A DNA stretch of 32,486 bases from Escherichia phage IMM-001: the sequence record MF630922.1; one strand, written 5' to 3'. How positions within the stretch are numbered: position 1 is the stretch's first letter; every line of letters starts with the position of its first letter. Both the position numbers and the translations under genes were made by a program. This document shows, piece by piece, positions 4,788 to 32,486 of this stretch. The notes beneath the pieces are model-generated. The model made no database searches. It was not told the origin of the DNA and saw nothing but the letters and a program-made list of their open reading frames with translations.

Positions 4788-4816
4788 TTGACAATAATCA
4801 ACGGGTGCATTAGCAT
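4788..4816 (+). promoter_or_regulatory. Sigma70-like promoter (TTGACA, 17 nt, TAGCAT)
   Basis: Perfect -35 hexamer, weaker -10; upstream of 4858 gene. Confidence 0.45.
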
Positions 4817-4857
4817 TAACTCATCTGGGCGACCCACTAACCAGAAGGAGATTTAAA

Positions 4858-5061
4858 ATGATGACATTAAAAGCAGTATACAAAGACGGCAGCGAGCAGA
4901 TTATTGAAGTTAAAAGAGTTGGCTACGTGCAAGGTTCTCGACTTGTTGACTTCGTTGATTGCGATGGTCCAGGTCAGTTCTTCATGGAGGACCGAGTATT
5001 GTCAGTTTATGTGATGAATTCAGCCGGCAGCACCGTTGGGAAATACCAGCTAGCGGATTGA
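4858..5061 (+). CDS. hypothetical small protein (67 aa)
   Basis: RBS aaggag; followed by terminator. Confidence 0.5.
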   Translation: MMTLKAVYKDGSEQIIEVKRVGYVQGSRLVDFVDCDGPGQFFMEDRVLSVYVMNSAGSTVGKYQLAD

Positions 5062-5071
5062 GTTGCTATCA

Positions 5072-5095
5072 AGCCCCTTAATTGGGGCTTTTTTA
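5072..5095 (+). terminator. Rho-independent terminator
   Basis: agcccc-ttaatt-ggggct then T6. Confidence 0.7.
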
Positions 5096-5106
5096 CGTCT
5101 GCAATA

Positions 5107-5115
5107 TGCTATAAT
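5107..5115 (+). promoter_or_regulatory. Extended -10 promoter element (TGcTATAAT) upstream of terminase genes
   Basis: TGn + TATAAT 27 nt upstream of the terS-like start; no clear -35. Confidence 0.35.
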
Positions 5116-5142
5116 GCTAACCTGAACAAAAGGAGGACGAAA

Positions 5143-5683: not shown

Positions 5684-7252
5684 ATGTCTAATTTAGTTTG
5701 GGAGGAAATGACGTCAGCCGAAAAGATGGCGGTTAAGGCAATATCAACTCATAGCTTTGAGGGTTTTCTGAGGGTGTGGTTCCAACTGACACAGGGCGAG
5801 CGGTACATCCCAAACTGGCATCATAAATACCTTTGCAGGATAATTGACGAGATTATCGCTGGTGAGCGTAAGGACACCATCATTAACGTCGCTCCCGGTA
5901 GTGGAAAGACAGAAATTGCCTCAATCCACTTTCCAGCATACTCGATGGTTAAGCTGAAGAAGGTCAGGAACCTTAACATATCGTTTGCCGACTCACTGGT
6001 TAAGCGTAACTCCAAGCGAGTGCGTGACTTAATTAAGTCGGTTGAGTTCCAGGAGTTATTCCCATGCAAGTTTGGCACATGCAAGGATGATGAGCTACAG
6101 GTTCTGGATGAGTCTGGCAAAGTACGGTTTGAGTCAATCTCCAAGGCTGCTGGAGGCCAAATCACCGGCGCGAGGGGCGGCTATATAACCGATTCATATA
6201 GTGGCGCGGTTCTGTTAGATGATTTTGACAAACCAGCCGATATGCTTTCTGCCGTGTTCCGCGCAAACAATCACGTGATGCTAAAGAACACCATCCGCTC
6301 TCGTAGGGCTAGCTCAGTTAAAGGTAAAGCAACTCCGATTATCTCTATTCAGCAGCGACTTCACGTCAACGATAGCACGTGGTTCATGATGAATGGAGGT
6401 ATGGGTATCAGCTTCGATTTGATTAAGATACCAGCGCTAGTAACTGAAGATTACGTGGATACACTTCCTGACTGGATTAAGCAGCAATTCATTGATGACG
6501 TTCTATCAAGCGAATATATTGAGCGTGACGGCGTGAAATATTACAGCTACTTCCCAGAAAAGGAGTCGGTTAACGACCTGGTAGCAATGTGGGATTCAGA
6601 CAGCTATACATTCCTTAGCCAGTATCAGCAGGAGCCTGTAGCGCTTGGTGGTAATCTGATTAATGTAGAATGGCTCCAGCGCATTAGCGACACTCTGCGA
6701 CCGCCAGCTAAGTATGATTACAGATTCATGACTCTTGATACCGCCATGACAACAAAGTCATACAGCGACTTTAGTGTACTGCAACTTTGGGGTTATAAGG
6801 ATGGGAAGATTTACCTGCTTGACCAGCGACGAGGTAAGTTTGAAGCGCCGGAGCTAGAGGCTGAGTTATTGGATTTCGAGAAGATAGCAAGGGCATCCAA
6901 TCAGACAGATGGTATCCTTCGTAAAATCATCATCGAGAAGAAAGCCTCTGGCATCGGGCTGATTCAATCGGTAGGTAGGGTTATGCGGACACCAATCGAG
7001 CCATATGTGCCAGATAACGACAAGCTAACTCGCGTAATGAGTGCACTGCCTCAGATTAAGGCTGGTAACGTTATCCTGCCTGAGTCTGCAACATGGCTAA
7101 ACGGATTACTAACGGAGATTGCGGCATTCACGGCAGATGACTCGCATGTTCATGATGACCAGATTGACTGTTTAACTATGGCTGTCAACCTTGTTCTAAA
7201 CATTGCAGAGGATCCTAAATCAAGGATGATGAGATTAGCAGGAATCAAATAG
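5684..7252 (+). CDS. terL: terminase large subunit (522 aa)
   Basis: Walker A-like VAPGSGKTE near N-terminus, size and position before portal. Confidence 0.88.
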   Translation: MSNLVWEEMTSAEKMAVKAISTHSFEGFLRVWFQLTQGERYIPNWHHKYLCRIIDEIIAGERKDTIINVAPGSGKTEIASIHFPAYSMVKLKKVRNLNISFADSLVKRNSKRVRDLIKSVEFQELFPCKFGTCKDDELQVLDESGKVRFESISKAAGGQITGARGGYITDSYSGAVLLDDFDKPADMLSAVFRANNHVMLKNTIRSRRASSVKGKATPIISIQQRLHVNDSTWFMMNGGMGISFDLIKIPALVTEDYVDTLPDWIKQQFIDDVLSSEYIERDGVKYYSYFPEKESVNDLVAMWDSDSYTFLSQYQQEPVALGGNLINVEWLQRISDTLRPPAKYDYRFMTLDTAMTTKSYSDFSVLQLWGYKDGKIYLLDQRRGKFEAPELEAELLDFEKIARASNQTDGILRKIIIEKKASGIGLIQSVGRVMRTPIEPYVPDNDKLTRVMSALPQIKAGNVILPESATWLNGLLTEIAAFTADDSHVHDDQIDCLTMAVNLVLNIAEDPKSRMMRLAGIK

Positions 7253-7293
7253 CACTTTTTGCTAAAGACACTCCGCCATTGGTGGCGTATAGT
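7248..7293 (+). promoter_or_regulatory. Conserved IR promoter-like cassette copy 4 (AATAGCAC-ttt-TTGCTAAA, 23 nt, TATAGT), overlapping the terL stop
   Basis: Motif family. Confidence 0.55.
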
Positions 7294-7323
7294 TACCTCA
7301 CGCAAACAAGAGGAGAAAGTACA

Positions 7324-7696
7324 AGTGGCAACCAAATTAAAAGCTGTATATCTTGGCAACGAAGATGGAGAGTATCGTGGTTTCACCGTAGGAAATGAAT
7401 ATGAGGTTGGTAATTACATAGCTGAAAATGACTGCTTCGGTTCTTTTGATGATGATGGTTGTTATCTTTACATCAATAACGGAGCATTCCACAAGTTTCG
7501 AATCCACGATGAGAATGGCTACCTCAATTTAAAAACACAAGATGAATTTATCAGCAAAGAAAAGCAGTTAAAATACTACATCAATGGCGACGCTGTCACA
7601 AAATGTAAGTTCAATGACGTGCTGCTATGCGTAATGGGATTTCAGTCTGATGGGATTGACGCATCATCAATCAAGTTCGAAGTAAAATTCGAGTAA
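7324..7696 (+). CDS. hypothetical protein (124 aa from GTG 7324), moron-like between terminase and portal
   Basis: RBS gaggag before GTG; ORF-track ATG 7259 lies inside the promoter-like motif; flanked by cassette copy 4 and terminator. Confidence 0.45.
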
Positions 7697-7718
7697 CCAT
7701 AAAAGCTATGTTAAACTA

Positions 7719-7742
7719 AGCCCCTAACGGGGCTTTTTTATT
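7719..7742 (+). terminator. Rho-independent terminator
   Basis: agcccc-taac-ggggct then T7. Confidence 0.7.
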
Positions 7743-7753
7743 GGAGCAAGAAA

Positions 7754-9025
7754 ATGGTAAAAGCAGATTCATATGCCACGCAGTTCCTCGGTGGGGCTAG
7801 TGATGGCAGCGAGATTTACGGTCACTTTGGCAACACCTACCTAACACCTCCTTTCGCTGATTCACTTTACGTATCCAACTCAATTGTTCGTCGCATTGTC
7901 GACACCATACCGGAGACTGCAATCGCAGCAGGTTTCCATATCGACGGCATTGATGACGAAGGTGAGTTCTGGTCCAGGTGGGATTACCTGAAGGTTAACG
8001 AGTCAATATCTGACGCGTGGTCATGGGCGAGATTATTTGGCGGCTCGGCAATTGTGGCTATCGTTAAGGATAATCGTGCGTTAACTAGTCCAGTACGTGA
8101 AGGCGCAGAACTTGAATCACTTCGAGTATACGAGCGAAGTCAGGTAAAGGTGCAAACGAAGGAGGAAAACCCTCGCAACGTGCGATTTGGTAAGCCGCTA
8201 ACGTACCGCATCACGCCTGAAGGCAGCACCATGTTTTATGACGTTCACTATTCCAGGGTTCACATCATGGATGGTGAGAAAATCCCCAGTTCATTGCGTC
8301 GCGGTAATGATGGGTGGGGTGCTAGCGTACTGACTCCTGACTTGCTGGAATCAATCAAGGATTATCAGACGTGCGAGAAGCTGGCAACTCAGTTATTGCG
8401 ACGTAAGCAACAGGCGGTTTGGAAGGCTAAAGGTCTGGCTGAATTGTGTGACGACGCTGAAGGTTTTGGCGCGGCCAGGTTGAGACTGGCTCAGGTTGAT
8501 GATAACTCTGGAGTTGGGCGTGCTATTGGTATCGATGCTGAGGCTGAAGAATACAGCGTTCTGAATTCGGATATTGGTGGTATTGATGGATTCCTCGATA
8601 AGAAGTTCGACAGGATTGTTGCTCTGAGCGGTATTCATGAAATCATACTAAAGGGCCGTAACGTTGGTGGTCTATCCTCCAGCCAAAACACAGCTCTGGA
8701 GACATTTCATAAGCTAATCGACCGCAAGCGCAATGAGGAGTTACTACCTGTCCTTGGGTTCTTAATCCCATTCATCACAACGGAGCAAGAATGGTCGGTT
8801 GAGTTTAATCCGCTAGCTCAGGAATCGAAGAAAGACCGCGCTGAAATACTGAAGAATAACGTTGACTCAATCTCAGCCCTTATCACTAACGGCGTAATGG
8901 ATACAGATGAAGCACGAGATACCTTGCGTGCATTAGCACCTGAGGTTAAGATTGGTGAAGGTTCAATTGTTACCGAGCAATCCGCTCAGGAAGATTTACC
9001 AAAAGAGGAGGTTGTAATTGAATAA
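7754..9025 (+). CDS. portal protein (423 aa)
   Basis: Size and position after terminase; 8-nt overlap with next gene. Confidence 0.7.
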   Translation: MVKADSYATQFLGGASDGSEIYGHFGNTYLTPPFADSLYVSNSIVRRIVDTIPETAIAAGFHIDGIDDEGEFWSRWDYLKVNESISDAWSWARLFGGSAIVAIVKDNRALTSPVREGAELESLRVYERSQVKVQTKEENPRNVRFGKPLTYRITPEGSTMFYDVHYSRVHIMDGEKIPSSLRRGNDGWGASVLTPDLLESIKDYQTCEKLATQLLRRKQQAVWKAKGLAELCDDAEGFGAARLRLAQVDDNSGVGRAIGIDAEAEEYSVLNSDIGGIDGFLDKKFDRIVALSGIHEIILKGRNVGGLSSSQNTALETFHKLIDRKRNEELLPVLGFLIPFITTEQEWSVEFNPLAQESKKDRAEILKNNVDSISALITNGVMDTDEARDTLRALAPEVKIGEGSIVTEQSAQEDLPKEEVVIE

Positions 9026-10135: not shown

Positions 10136-10609
10136 ATGGCAATTCGTTCTGTAGCACTGGCAGGTATGGTAGCTGATACCTCCCTGTATAATATCGATGG
10201 CGCTTGTGTAGTTGGTGGCTCTGCTGCAATTCCTGTTGGTACTGTTGTTGGTGTTACGTCCGCTCAGCCTGTTGATGGGCACAAGGTAGTAGCTGCAACT
10301 GGTATTACCGCCGCTAACGTTCTTGGTGTTGTTGTTCGATCTCATTACGAGACTCCAGACGGCACAGCTCGCGTAAATGAAGCGGTTAACGTAATGACTT
10401 CTGGTCGTATCTGGGTTCGCACAACTCTTGATGCCGCCCCTGCATTTGGCGCTCCGGTTCTTGTTTCTGCAACTGGTGTTGTTGAGGAGGCTGGTGCTGT
10501 AGCGACTGGCTGGACCTTCGCTGGTGGCTTCATCCCTAACACTGGCACTAAGCCGCAAGACCTTAGCGTAGATGGCGCTCTGGTTGAAGTTCAGGTTAAA
10601 CAGAAGTAA
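10136..10609 (+). CDS. putative capsid decoration/cement protein (157 aa)
   Basis: Small Gly/Ala/Val-rich protein between scaffold and major capsid; position-based. Confidence 0.3.
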   Translation: MAIRSVALAGMVADTSLYNIDGACVVGGSAAIPVGTVVGVTSAQPVDGHKVVAATGITAANVLGVVVRSHYETPDGTARVNEAVNVMTSGRIWVRTTLDAAPAFGAPVLVSATGVVEEAGAVATGWTFAGGFIPNTGTKPQDLSVDGALVEVQVKQK

Positions 10610-15564: not shown

Positions 15565-15571
15565 AAATTAA

Positions 15572-15593
15572 CCCTCTTCGGAGGGTTTTTTAT
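15572..15593 (+). terminator. Rho-independent terminator
   Basis: ccctc-ttcg-gaggg then T6. Confidence 0.75.
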
Positions 15594-15594
15594 T

Positions 15595-15639
15595 GATAGC
15601 ACTTTTTGTTAAAGGCTATTGTGTTGATTGCTGTATAGT
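15595..15639 (+). promoter_or_regulatory. Conserved IR promoter-like cassette copy 5, variant (GATAGCAC-ttt-TTGTTAAA, 22 nt, TATAGT)
   Basis: Motif family; leader tcattcatcgaaacg. Confidence 0.5.
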
Positions 15640-15672
15640 TCATTCATCGAAACGAAATGATAGATTAATGAA

Positions 15673-19630: not shown

Positions 19631-19981
19631 ATGGCATTGCAAACATTCAATTGGTGCTTAAACGTACTCAATGGCGGCTCTTCATTTACCAATGCCAACA
19701 ATATTAGGGTTGTATCATTTGGTAATGGTTACCAACAGCGTGGCACTGGAGGATACAGGACGAACAAGAGGACGTATACTGTTAGCTACGTTGGCCGTGA
19801 GTGGGAGGCAGTAATGAACTTCTGCCTTGATCACATCGTAAAACCTTTCGCATGGACTACGCCACAGGGTGAGTTAAAGATGTTTGTTATTCAGCAGGAT
19901 AGCATTAGCGTCTCGCCGAGCACAAAAGAAGTTCAGACTGTTAGTATGCAATTTACTGAAGTTTTCACTTCAATGAGTTAA
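19631..19981 (+). CDS. minor tail protein, lambda M-like (116 aa)
   Basis: Position and size after tape measure. Confidence 0.55.
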   Translation: MALQTFNWCLNVLNGGSSFTNANNIRVVSFGNGYQQRGTGGYRTNKRTYTVSYVGREWEAVMNFCLDHIVKPFAWTTPQGELKMFVIQQDSISVSPSTKEVQTVSMQFTEVFTSMS

Positions 19982-19985
19982 ACTA

Positions 19986-20009
19986 AGGCCCATAAAGGGC
20001 CTTTTTTTA
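19986..20009 (+). terminator. Rho-independent terminator
   Basis: aggccc-ataaa-gggcct then T7. Confidence 0.7.
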
Positions 20010-20020
20010 TTGGAGAGAAT

Positions 20021-20776
20021 ATGGCAAGTGTAAAGTTTGAAAACCAGCTTCAATCACTATTTCCTGGTGAGGTAGTCACACTTATTGAGGTTGATGGCAG
20101 CAAGTTTGGCGCAAGGGTTTACAGGTTTCATGGAGAGGACATCTCATACACGCCAGAGGAAATCATGCAAGCCCAAACATCTGGTCAGCCACTACCATCC
20201 AAGACAATCACGTTCCGTGGCGAAGAGTATGGAGCCAGGCCTTTCGGCATTAGCGGCATCAACCTGACTTCTGACGGCAAAGCAAACAAGCTCACGCTAA
20301 TTCTATCAAACGTTGACCAGGCTGTTTCCGCACTCATACGTCAGTATAATGGTATGGTTCAGGCCAAGGTGACAATCTGGGTTACTATCAGGGATAATAT
20401 CAATGAGGACGGCAGCATTGCAGATGGCGATTATCGTAAGATGGTTTACTTTATTGAGCGCCCTAAGCAGGTTGACTACAAAACTGCCTCTTTTGAGTTA
20501 TCTAGCCCAATTGATATGGATGGTATTTATATTCCAGCCAGGCTAGTCCAGTCAGTATGCTATTGGGCTTCCCGTGGCTGGTACCGCAGTGGGAATGGTT
20601 GTGCTTATGCTGGTAATCGATATTTTGATAAAGACAATAATCCTGTTGATGACCCTGGCCTAGATTTCTGCGCCGGAACTGTTGACGCCTGTAAGTTAAG
20701 GTTTGGCGAGAATAACCAATTAGATTTTGGCGGTTGTGCCTCAGCAAGTTTGCAAGCTAAGAATAATCAGAACTAA
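20021..20776 (+). CDS. minor tail protein, lambda L-like (251 aa)
   Basis: C-terminal cysteine cluster as in L-family tail-tip proteins. Confidence 0.65.
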   Translation: MASVKFENQLQSLFPGEVVTLIEVDGSKFGARVYRFHGEDISYTPEEIMQAQTSGQPLPSKTITFRGEEYGARPFGISGINLTSDGKANKLTLILSNVDQAVSALIRQYNGMVQAKVTIWVTIRDNINEDGSIADGDYRKMVYFIERPKQVDYKTASFELSSPIDMDGIYIPARLVQSVCYWASRGWYRSGNGCAYAGNRYFDKDNNPVDDPGLDFCAGTVDACKLRFGENNQLDFGGCASASLQAKNNQN

Positions 20777-27646: not shown

Positions 27647-27745
27647 CTGGTTACGCGTAACCGATGTAAATCGATGTATACCATATGCATCCGCTGGAAA
27701 TCGTATACGCATTGTTACGCCTAGTTACGCCATAGTTACATTAAA

Positions 27746-27806
27746 ATATCTATATATATCAACCTTTTACTCTTATTATTATTATTATATATATTACTGT
27801 GTATAT
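27746..27806 (+). repeat. AT-rich repeat, copy B, containing (TTA)5 microsatellite at 27773..27787
   Basis: Shares core with 229..297; lies in the 535-bp ORF-free region between divergent blocks. Confidence 0.8.
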
Positions 27807-28113
27807 CATGTAACCACTGTTCTGGAGTGTTCCGGCTATAATTTTTATATCATGTGATTTTATACAGTATTTCGCGGCACATATACCAATGCACCACCCG
27901 CTAAAATCGGTATACACGGTATACGCATTATTTACATTGAGCTATAGCGGCCCAGCCGGAGCAGTTAAGCGTAACTAATGCCAATGTCTACACGTAATTA
28001 CAAAATTATACGCGTATACTTGATTAATTAATCGGGGATACCAATTAGACGTGGTGACAAGCGTTCTGCATAATTATCACATCGAAAGCAAACAACCATA
28101 GAGAGATAGAGAA

Positions 28114-31131: not shown

Positions 31132-31140
31132 TAAAAGATA

Positions 31141-31163
31141 AGGCCCCTTTCGGGGCCTTTTTA
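31141..31163. terminator. Bidirectional rho-independent terminator
   Basis: aggcccc-tttc-ggggcct then T5; convergent genes on both sides. Confidence 0.7.
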
Positions 31164-31691
31164 TGGCATGTTTACTCGAATTGAAACGAACGAGTCAGAA
31201 GGTATATCTATAGGGTCTCCGTTACTGAAGCCGTCAATTTTATTTCTCGCGAAAGACGGAGATGAATCGTGAGTGCGATGATAAGTTTTAACAACTATTG
31301 AACCATCAGCTTCAACCTCGTAATCTAGCCATATTCTAGGCTGCTTATTCAAGTCTACAGGTACCTCAAATCCACCGTTAACACCGCCCCAAGAAGTGTC
31401 AGAATTTAGGCCAAGCACACCTGATACCTTATAAACACCAGTAGAAACCCTCTCCACTGAAGCTCCTTCTGATTCCTCGTTTGTTTCAAAACTCCCATCT
31501 CGGAATACCTTAATTATAGGTGAGGCCACTTTGACGAAACCGCTAGGGTCCACTGTTGTGTTTAATCCGTGTAAAAGTTCCATTACCGCAAGTCCGCCAT
31601 TATAAGTTGAGTTAGCTATATAACAACGCCTTGCCCCATAAGATATGGCAAGCTGACCCCACTCGCGTGGAGTTGGGCCAGGCATATCCAT
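31161..31691 (-). CDS. tail-fibre-like protein, C-terminal part (176 aa from first ATG); frame stays open upstream to 31970 with no start codon
   Basis: Upstream in-frame translation ...NLQNKLQARSNLGLGTSATINHGDDAGQ... looks fibre-like; no ATG/GTG/TTG in 93 upstream codons. Confidence 0.4.
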   Translation of the reverse strand: MDMPGPTPREWGQLAISYGARRCYIANSTYNGGLAVMELLHGLNTTVDPSGFVKVASPIIKVFRDGSFETNEESEGASVERVSTGVYKVSGVLGLNSDTSWGGVNGGFEVPVDLNKQPRIWLDYEVEADGSIVVKTYHRTHDSSPSFARNKIDGFSNGDPIDIPSDSFVSIRVNMP

Positions 31692-32431: not shown

Positions 32432-32486
32432 CGTTGGATTTATTGATTGTTGCAGCTATTGCAATGATTCACATGACTATTGCACA

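Follow-up and report, generated by a model that had tools for sequence, protein, structure and literature searches.

A probable facultative and exchangeable expression unit between the large terminase and portal genes of Escherichia phage IMM-001

What is a small gene with its own promoter-like element doing between the large terminase gene (terL) and the portal gene of a T1-like phage, two genes that normally lie side by side? The question is raised by a 32,486-nt stretch of Escherichia phage IMM-001 (MF630922.1), hereafter the window, to which all positions refer and which is given as one strand, 5' to 3'. The original prediction, made from the letters alone, described a moron-like cassette at this site, consisting of a promoter-like element on the terL stop codon, an open reading frame (ORF) and a terminator. 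The analysis reported here assigns the gene to PHROG 14592, a known but uncharacterised family of which it is a new and divergent member, within a known kind of genome feature. Positions 7249–7742 are probably a facultative, horizontally exchanged accessory expression unit, the product of which would be an intracellular binding or adaptor protein.

The flanks match coliphages of the Drexlerviridae/Braunvirinae (Rtp/T1-like); the closest relative over terL and the portal gene is phage ES (87.6 % nucleotide identity), and the TR1 group, at 86.6 %, is also among the closest. A sensitive blastn comparison of positions 6650–8350 with a phage collection returned 124 records, 37 of which have a terL–portal span of about the window's length and carry a homologue in the slot, so that the gene is not universal at this position. 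In AugustePiccard and RobRod40, the homologue is accompanied by a gene for an HNH homing endonuclease, while in IME542 the HNH gene occupies the slot alone. The remaining listed records have a span about 450 bp shorter and an empty slot (at least 21 records), namely TR1/2/3, CY1, Rao1, JeanPiccard, DTL, RES-2009a, FP, Msk, MM01, A110b, BEK6, BEK1-1 and five listed vB_EcoS-12397V-type records (hosts E. coli DSM 12242); the slot state refers to the matches listed, with 64 of the 124 records outside that list. The HNH gene of AugustePiccard (2174–2716 of record L016) has its own copy of the promoter-like cassette, and in ES, TR1 and record L019 an HNH gene lies instead between terS and terL.

At the empty site, terL and the portal gene are 47–49 bp apart (TR1 and JeanPiccard), which bears out the prediction that the unit separates two normally adjacent genes. 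Alignment of the junctions gives the order terL stop, CCGTGATAAACTAGCCCC...GGGGCTTTTTTATTGGAG, portal ATG, and the optional piece consists of the cassette, the ORF and about 15 nt more, with its left boundary between AAATAG and CAC and its right boundary at the GTGATAAACTAG terminator module. The strong terminator placed by the original prediction within the insert, at 7719–7742, is a real hairpin (7718–7742, with a 7-bp stem containing five G-C pairs followed by T6-A-TT, predicted at −16.9 kcal/mol), which stands between the ORF and the portal gene in every occupied phage. However, the assignment of this hairpin to the insert does not hold: empty-slot phages have the same terminator directly after terL and, since the empty-site junction carries both the terminator and the portal ribosome-binding site (RBS), both belong to the backbone and not to the cargo. 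The terminator/RBS module, which takes the form GTTAAACTA, a G+C-rich hairpin and then TTTTTTATTGGAG-N6-ATG, is repeated in the window, with four copies at 7710–7760, 19977–20027, 15565–15595 and 31136–31166. At 15565–15640, this module and a promoter cassette join end to end to form a composite like the PeSL modules considered below.

Among the family-search matches, no member of PHROG 14592 was found anywhere in TR1, JeanPiccard, DTL or Msk. Because close relatives lack any member of the family, genome comparison demonstrates that the gene is dispensable for virion building, and its 123-aa product is probably not a core structural component.

The promoter-like element was correctly recognised as a copy (copy 4) of a repeated cassette lying on the terL stop: the TAG codon at 7250–7252 falls inside an exact copy of the motif at 7249–7266, and the RBS proposed for the ORF is present as GAGGAG at 7310–7315. 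When up to three mismatches are allowed, the cassette pattern ATAGCAC-N4-TGCTAAA has 15 matches in the window where 4.3 are expected, a count that was not reached in any of 100 shuffles used as a control. About ten of the window's copies also have a -10-like hexamer 38–40 nt after the motif start, a conserved CATCRAMAACGAGAGG-type leader and then an ORF. The general form can be written as (T)AAATAGCAC-N4-TGCTAAA, a stretch of about 20 nt that often contains GCCA-N4-TGGC, TATAGT or TATAAT, and a CATCGAAACGAGAGGAG-type leader. Most copies begin with TAAATAG and provide the gene before them with its stop codon; judging from this pattern, copy 4 is a genuine copy of the phage's generic promoter/leader module and is not private to the 123-aa gene. 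In AugustePiccard, 21 cassettes each point at a downstream gene, and these genes include early, DNA-metabolism and tail genes.

A canonical -35 element is absent from the cassette; the motif TTGCTA lies 22–23 bp from the -10 hexamer and therefore does not qualify as one. The palindrome TAGCA-N5-TGCTA inside the cassette core (7250–7264) is centred some 43 bp ahead of the point at which transcription is inferred to start and would span roughly -50 to -36, where a dimeric factor, perhaps an activator or another regulator, may bind. Equivalents of the second short palindrome next to the hexamer (GCCA-N4-TGGC) are present in relatives and in other cassette copies. A search of Rfam gave no RNA element near gathering scores.

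Both the ORF and its GTG start, as originally predicted, are real; the start lies at 7325 and not at 7324, and the frame comprises 123 codons rather than 124, followed by a TAA stop at 7694–7696. When the homologues in Rtp, ES and EC3a are aligned with the gene, their ATG start falls on this GTG, and a longer TTG-initiated frame proposed by the ORF finder would cross the promoter-like region. The description of the protein as rich in tyrosine, asparagine and glycine is roughly right (7.3, 8.1 and 9.8 %, respectively, with 8.1 % phenylalanine and neither proline nor tryptophan), and the product is acidic (isoelectric point, pI, 4.7) and hydrophilic (grand average of hydropathy −0.46). It matches phrog_14592 over its full length (E 2.6e-30; residues 5–123 on profile positions 2–116 of 116). 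By tblastn, homologues are found in 37 phage records at only 30–48 % identity, including Rtp rtp22, Jk06 35P, phiEB49 gp57, CEB_EC3a gp67 and those of the Piccard phages of the BASEL collection, while a profile search recovers 65 proteins, nearly all on phage contigs of 44–50 kb. The reading frame is intact in at least 60 homologues, with conserved core residues, and the family is kept in three Drexlerviridae subfamilies, often with two copies per genome. A spurious ORF, or genes on the minus strand instead, were considered and rejected on the number of homologues (65) and on a ratio of non-synonymous to synonymous substitution rates (dN/dS) below 1.

Two exceptions to the intact frame were observed in the terL–portal slot: the gene of phiEB49 (40133–40592 of record L023) is frameshifted in a run of eight A residues, and in the ACG-M12-type records (ACG-M12, SCS31 and ECH1) the gene is split in two pieces. 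These frameshifts could reflect sequencing error, gene decay or slippage.

The statement that the protein has no recognisable motif stands as far as family libraries are concerned, as there were no matches in Pfam or NCBIfam and none to the families of the PADLOC defence models; a profile search of the PDB likewise gave chance-level matches only. It does not stand for the predicted structure, in which the N-terminal half is SH3-like. An AlphaFold2 model built from a 58-sequence alignment (mean predicted local distance difference test score, pLDDT, 76.9) has five strands in residues 5–62, forming a predicted five-stranded SH3-type beta-barrel, a low-confidence, disordered linker (66–79) and a C-terminal domain (82–122) with the order strand, strand, helix, strand. 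Foldseek-type fold searches returned generic SH3 matches only and nothing informative for the C-terminal domain; in BFVD, the best matches beyond the family are to phage proteins that are small and uncharacterised, DUF7244 members among them. The last residues of the protein hardly vary, reading IKFEVKFE in most members, the window protein included, and FIDFEV(Y/S)FE in the type found in a second, tail-gene slot. As this end is kept in tail-slot paralogues with different downstream DNA, it is the protein rather than the DNA that is under constraint.

The G+C content of the ORF is 37.9 %, against 46.3 % in terL and 47.9 % in the portal gene. Nei–Gojobori estimates for 13 phages gave dN/dS values of 0.3–0.66 for the ORF, a range that represents the least saturated pairs, versus 0.03–0.12 for terL and the portal gene; over 70 pairs the ORF values run from 0.16 to 0.69 and are always below 1. 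These estimates mark the ORF as a real gene, on which purifying selection acts, but with a strength five to ten times lower than in its flanks. The history of the gene is also at odds with that of its surroundings. Compared with phage ES, the ORF has a dN of 0.66 and a dS of 1.64, with proteins 35 % identical, versus a dN of 0.02 and a dS of 0.7–0.8 in the flanks, and the leader and cassette are 83–84 % identical in nucleotides to those of ES and EC3a, the ORF only 61–74 %. The reverse is seen with the metagenomic phage SRR14663583, where similarity is greatest in the ORF (dS 0.27), the portal gene has a dS of 1.2 and terL is saturated. This incongruence indicates that alleles have been replaced by recombination via the conserved cassette and terminator.

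The two domains also appear to have separate histories. Among 58 homologues, the identities of the N- and C-terminal domains are uncorrelated (r = 0.15), with extreme pairs in which the N-domains are 25 % and the C-domains 93 % identical or, in another pair, 93 % and 43 %. The window protein is a divergent allele (30–48 % identical to published members, 70 % to its best metagenomic relative) that combines a common type of N-domain with a rarer C-domain type, 'VTK..LLCV..DGID.SS'. Taken together, the comparisons demonstrate that the gene has been swapped between phages both as a whole allele and as separate domains.

Units of the same build are found elsewhere. The members of PHROG 14592 in Rtp (rtp22), Jk06 (35P), phiEB49 (gp57 and gp37) and AugustePiccard (bas01_0005 and bas01_0024) share cassette and terminator with the arrangement in the window and, except for the tail-slot copies gp37 and bas01_0024, also the slot. 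The second AugustePiccard copy, bas01_0024 (32 % identical; tblastn E 3e-11), lies between L-like and K-like minor tail genes, is preceded by an identical type of cassette and is followed by GTTAAACTAG, a terminator and TTATTGGAG. A promoter–ORF–terminator unit, gp37, occupies the position between the L-like and K-like tail genes of phiEB49, and a like unit lies between the Phage_tail_L and Prok-JAB/NlpC genes of a 44-kb metagenomic phage. The boundaries of this L/K tail slot are of the same kind as those of the terL–portal slot, and the tail-slot paralogues carry their own copy of the terminator. Second copies are also present in the genomes of ACG-M12, JulesPiccard and BEK6, the last of which has an empty terL–portal slot. 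The window itself holds a single family copy, and its own L/K junction (~20776) is uninterrupted and without a terminator.

One occurrence lies outside the Drexlerviridae. A more distant member, P0059, is encoded in a Vequintavirus-like contig (L020, 2442–2953; Logan ERR10744916), where it has small ORFs as neighbours, lies downstream of the gene for DNA polymerase and is placed between the equivalents of JEP1_081 and JEP1_082, and the arrangement recurs in a second run (L021; ERR10744276). JEP1 is without the P0059 insert. A native TTGACA-17-TATAAT promoter lies upstream of P0059, and a single Drexlerviridae-type cassette, 81 % identical to 7248–7316, lies downstream. This arrangement points to a putative gene transfer between unrelated coliphage families.

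These elements may be assembled into a model of how the unit would work. The generic promoter/leader cassette, with its palindrome, TATAGT hexamer and GAGGAG leader, would come first and also provide the terL stop; it would drive the GTG gene, giving an acidic, soluble 14-kDa protein of two modules, an SH3-like barrel and a C-terminal domain joined by a linker. Transcription would end at the terminator which, where the insert is lacking, closes the terL unit. Inside the infected cell, the product would bind a protein of the host or of a competitor, or serve as an adaptor to it, in host takeover, counter-defence or exclusion. An intracellular binding role is favoured because the gene is dispensable, evolves rapidly and in a modular fashion, appears portable to an unrelated phage and uses a promoter class of the early region. 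The suggestion in the original prediction of a function in host interaction, defence or anti-defence is plausible.

Several observations weigh against this explanation. The protein has no homology to known anti-defence, exclusion or host-takeover proteins in the PADLOC, Pfam, NCBIfam and PDB searches, which covered no anti-defence library. RefSeq and PHROG name the family 'virion structural protein', and one GenBank record reads 'putative minor outer capsid protein'. Both Drexlerviridae slots lie inside morphogenesis modules, on the late-gene strand. The difference between occupied and empty terL–portal slots is as compatible with deletion as with insertion. Finally, the Vequintavirus-like case comes from short-read assemblies, and no published member of Vequintavirus/Vequintavirinae carries the gene. 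The second and third of these points feed the main rival explanation, namely a dispensable virion-associated protein (a decoration, adhesion or accessory head or tail protein) that would attach through its conserved C-terminal strand and display the variable SH3-like domain. The nearly invariant C-terminal strand of the family fits such a design, and small beta-barrels, patchy spread and fast evolution are typical of non-essential decoration proteins such as Hoc and Soc of T4. The name, however, could not be traced to a primary proteomic observation in the literature searched (including Niu 2014, Chibeu 2012, SU57, KanT1 and ES10, with the Rtp and phiEB49 papers outside coverage). The phages analysed by virion mass spectrometry in Niu 2014 are not among the PHROG 14592 matches. 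The original GenBank records read 'hypothetical protein', the notes on phiEB49 making no mention of mass spectrometry. The label spreads through PHROG-based annotation and is best treated as unverified. In phages with terL and portal genes 86–88 % identical in nucleotides, the protein is either missing or represented by an allele of 35 % identity, the family is found in a head slot, a tail slot and a replication/early-type region of a myovirus-like contig, and the unit uses the promoter cassette of early-region genes. Moreover, the window already encodes a decoration ('cement') protein at 10136–10609, the counterpart of which in record L007 matches Pfam Phage_cement. Weighing both sides, a place in the virion is judged unlikely.

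Two further explanations were considered. The gene could be a near-neutral passenger of no benefit to the phage, carried along when the repeated promoter and terminator modules recombine or when HNH enzymes visiting the slot cause co-conversion, as its patchy presence, its elevated dN/dS, the HNH genes in the slot of AugustePiccard and RobRod40 (and alone in that of IME542) and the frameshifts in phiEB49 and the ACG-M12-type records might suggest; yet dN/dS never reaches 1, the frame and core residues are preserved across the homologues, the family has been retained, often in duplicate, in three subfamilies, and frameshifts of the phiEB49 type fall in a homopolymer and may be sequencing errors. 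Such a passenger is regarded as improbable. Alternatively, the promoter could be what matters, the cassette having been recruited to boost transcription of the portal and head genes with the ORF as an incidental companion. An identical cassette at 15597 does precede essential tail genes, and conservation is higher in cassette and leader than in the ORF, but a strong terminator separates the ORF from the portal gene wherever the slot is occupied, phages with an empty slot express the portal gene without this promoter, and the ORF is under purifying selection, all of which leaves this explanation with very little credence. The reading of 7249–7742 as a facultative and exchanged accessory unit with an intracellular product is thus the preferred one.

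How the unit relates to known genetic elements depends on the comparison chosen. Morons, as conceived by Juhala and Hendrix, occur in lambdoid phages such as HK97 and HK022. As in those phages, an extra gene with a promoter-like element upstream and a factor-independent terminator downstream lies between genes that are adjacent in relatives, has a base composition that deviates from its flanks and is not needed for virion assembly. Unlike lambdoid morons, the unit resides in a virulent T1-like phage, to which expression from a repressed prophage is inapplicable, its terminator is shared with the backbone and its promoter is the phage's own generic cassette rather than a foreign one. The term moron-like is nevertheless supported in respect of apparent architecture and distribution, since the unit combines an extra gene, a promoter-like element, a terminator, deviant G+C content, dispensability, mobility and exchange.

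A further parallel is offered by the PeSL mobile regulatory cassettes of T4-type phages (Arbiol et al. 2010, PMC2839356; Comeau et al. 2014, PMC4122927). In both cases, non-essential genes are bordered by short promoter modules and stem-loop terminator modules that recur through the genome, and where relatives differ by an insertion, deletion or replacement, such modules mark its limits. In contrast to PeSLs, the window unit occurs in a different phage family (Drexlerviridae) and has a different motif, with a palindrome at about -50 to -36 in place of a canonical -35 element at 17 bp; the order here is promoter–ORF–terminator, and a sigma70 early-promoter consensus and mini-circle intermediates are traits of the PeSLs. 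As motif and phage family differ, the window unit is taken to work like a PeSL by analogy and is not a member of that class. At the protein level, the comparison is with DUF7244, a standalone SH3 protein encoded beside Drexlerviridae lysis genes (PMC13164509). Both are small SH3-like beta-barrels of the Drexlerviridae, belong to the shell (non-core) genome and sometimes lie next to HNH genes, and Foldseek aligned DUF7244 to the N-domain of the window protein with template modelling (TM) scores of 0.66–0.69, normalised to the target. Two of the 58 homologues match Pfam DUF7244 weakly (E 0.0065), while the window protein itself gives no DUF7244 match in Pfam at E ≤ 1, and it differs from DUF7244 in having an extra C-terminal domain and another genomic location.

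A more specific proposal is put forward tentatively and is, as a whole, rather doubtful. PHROG 14592 might be an adaptor of two modules, with recognition resting on the variable SH3-like domain and docking on the C-terminal domain, which ends in the conserved strand. Coliphages would deploy it in an arms race, against either host immunity or phages that compete with them, and it would serve as an inhibitor, decoy or exclusion factor. PeSL-like modules would spread the adaptor between slots, even from Drexlerviridae to Vequintavirus, and domain shuffling would be the trace of the arms race.

The features of the unit and of the genes that flank it are collected in Table 1.

Table 1. Position, strand and supporting evidence of the features of the terL–portal unit, its flanks and the repeated cassette
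Feature	Position	Strand	Evidence
Large terminase gene terL (left flank)	5684–7252	+	Pfam Terminase_6C; phrog_38, E 4.5e-109
Cassette core ATAGCAC-TTTT-TGCTAAA	7249–7266	+	Exact pattern match; conserved here in ES, EC3a, Rtp and AugustePiccard
Second short palindrome CGCCA-TTGG-TGGCG (CGCCATTGGTGGCG), directly 5' of the -10-like hexamer	7274–7287	+	Sequence
-10-like hexamer TATAGT	7288–7293	+	Promoter scan AAGACA-17-TATAGT, 9/12 matches; in register in all cassette copies
Conserved leader with RBS GAGGAG (7310–7315)	7294–7324	+	Aligned with relatives
Accessory gene, GTG start, 123 aa, 14.05 kDa, pI 4.7	7325–7696	+	65 homologues; dN/dS < 1
GTTAAACTA junction and rho-independent terminator (stem 7718–7735, T-run to 7742)	7710–7742	+	Hairpin prediction; shared with empty-slot phages
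Portal RBS GGAG (7743–7746) and portal gene (7754–9025; ATG at 7754; right flank)	7743–9025	+	Pfam Phage_portal_3, E 9.6e-67
Cassette copies with hexamer and ORF	1227, 1528 (weak), 2277, 3591, 7250, 15597, 29746	+	Motif scan, alignment
Cassette copies with hexamer and ORF	27646, 26871, 32429	-	Motif scan, alignment

Some further observations concern the surroundings of the unit. Just 5' of terS, a small, autonomous-looking unit at 4788–5090 consists of a promoter-like TTGACA-17-TAGCAT (4788–4816), a 67-aa ORF (4858–5061; phrog_3909) and a terminator (5071–5090). The 67-aa ORF, which has a similar 'LKAVY' start, was considered as a paralogue of the 123-aa protein and rejected (BLASTP E 2.2). 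Directly after this terminator, the upstream region of terS (5093–5142) appears by eye to hold a different type of promoter with an extended -10 element, TGCTATAAT, at about 5107–5115, which is absent from the output of the promoter scan. AT-rich repeat blocks, consisting of TACAATATAATATCTATATATATCAACCTTTTACT followed by TATTATTATT runs, occur 27.5 kb apart at 220–303 and 27737–27812, and a 35-nt repeat, 80 % identical, lies close to both window ends (26–60 and 32435–32469).

T1-like phages are common contaminants in laboratories and fermentations as well as candidates for therapy, and their accessory genes are almost entirely uncharacterised. The terL–portal locus constitutes a natural experiment, in which near-isogenic phages have the slot empty, carry very different alleles or are doubly occupied, several of them being available in the public BASEL collection. 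The repeated modules suggest that T1-like phages shuffle accessory genes in a PeSL-like manner, so far described for T4-type phages.

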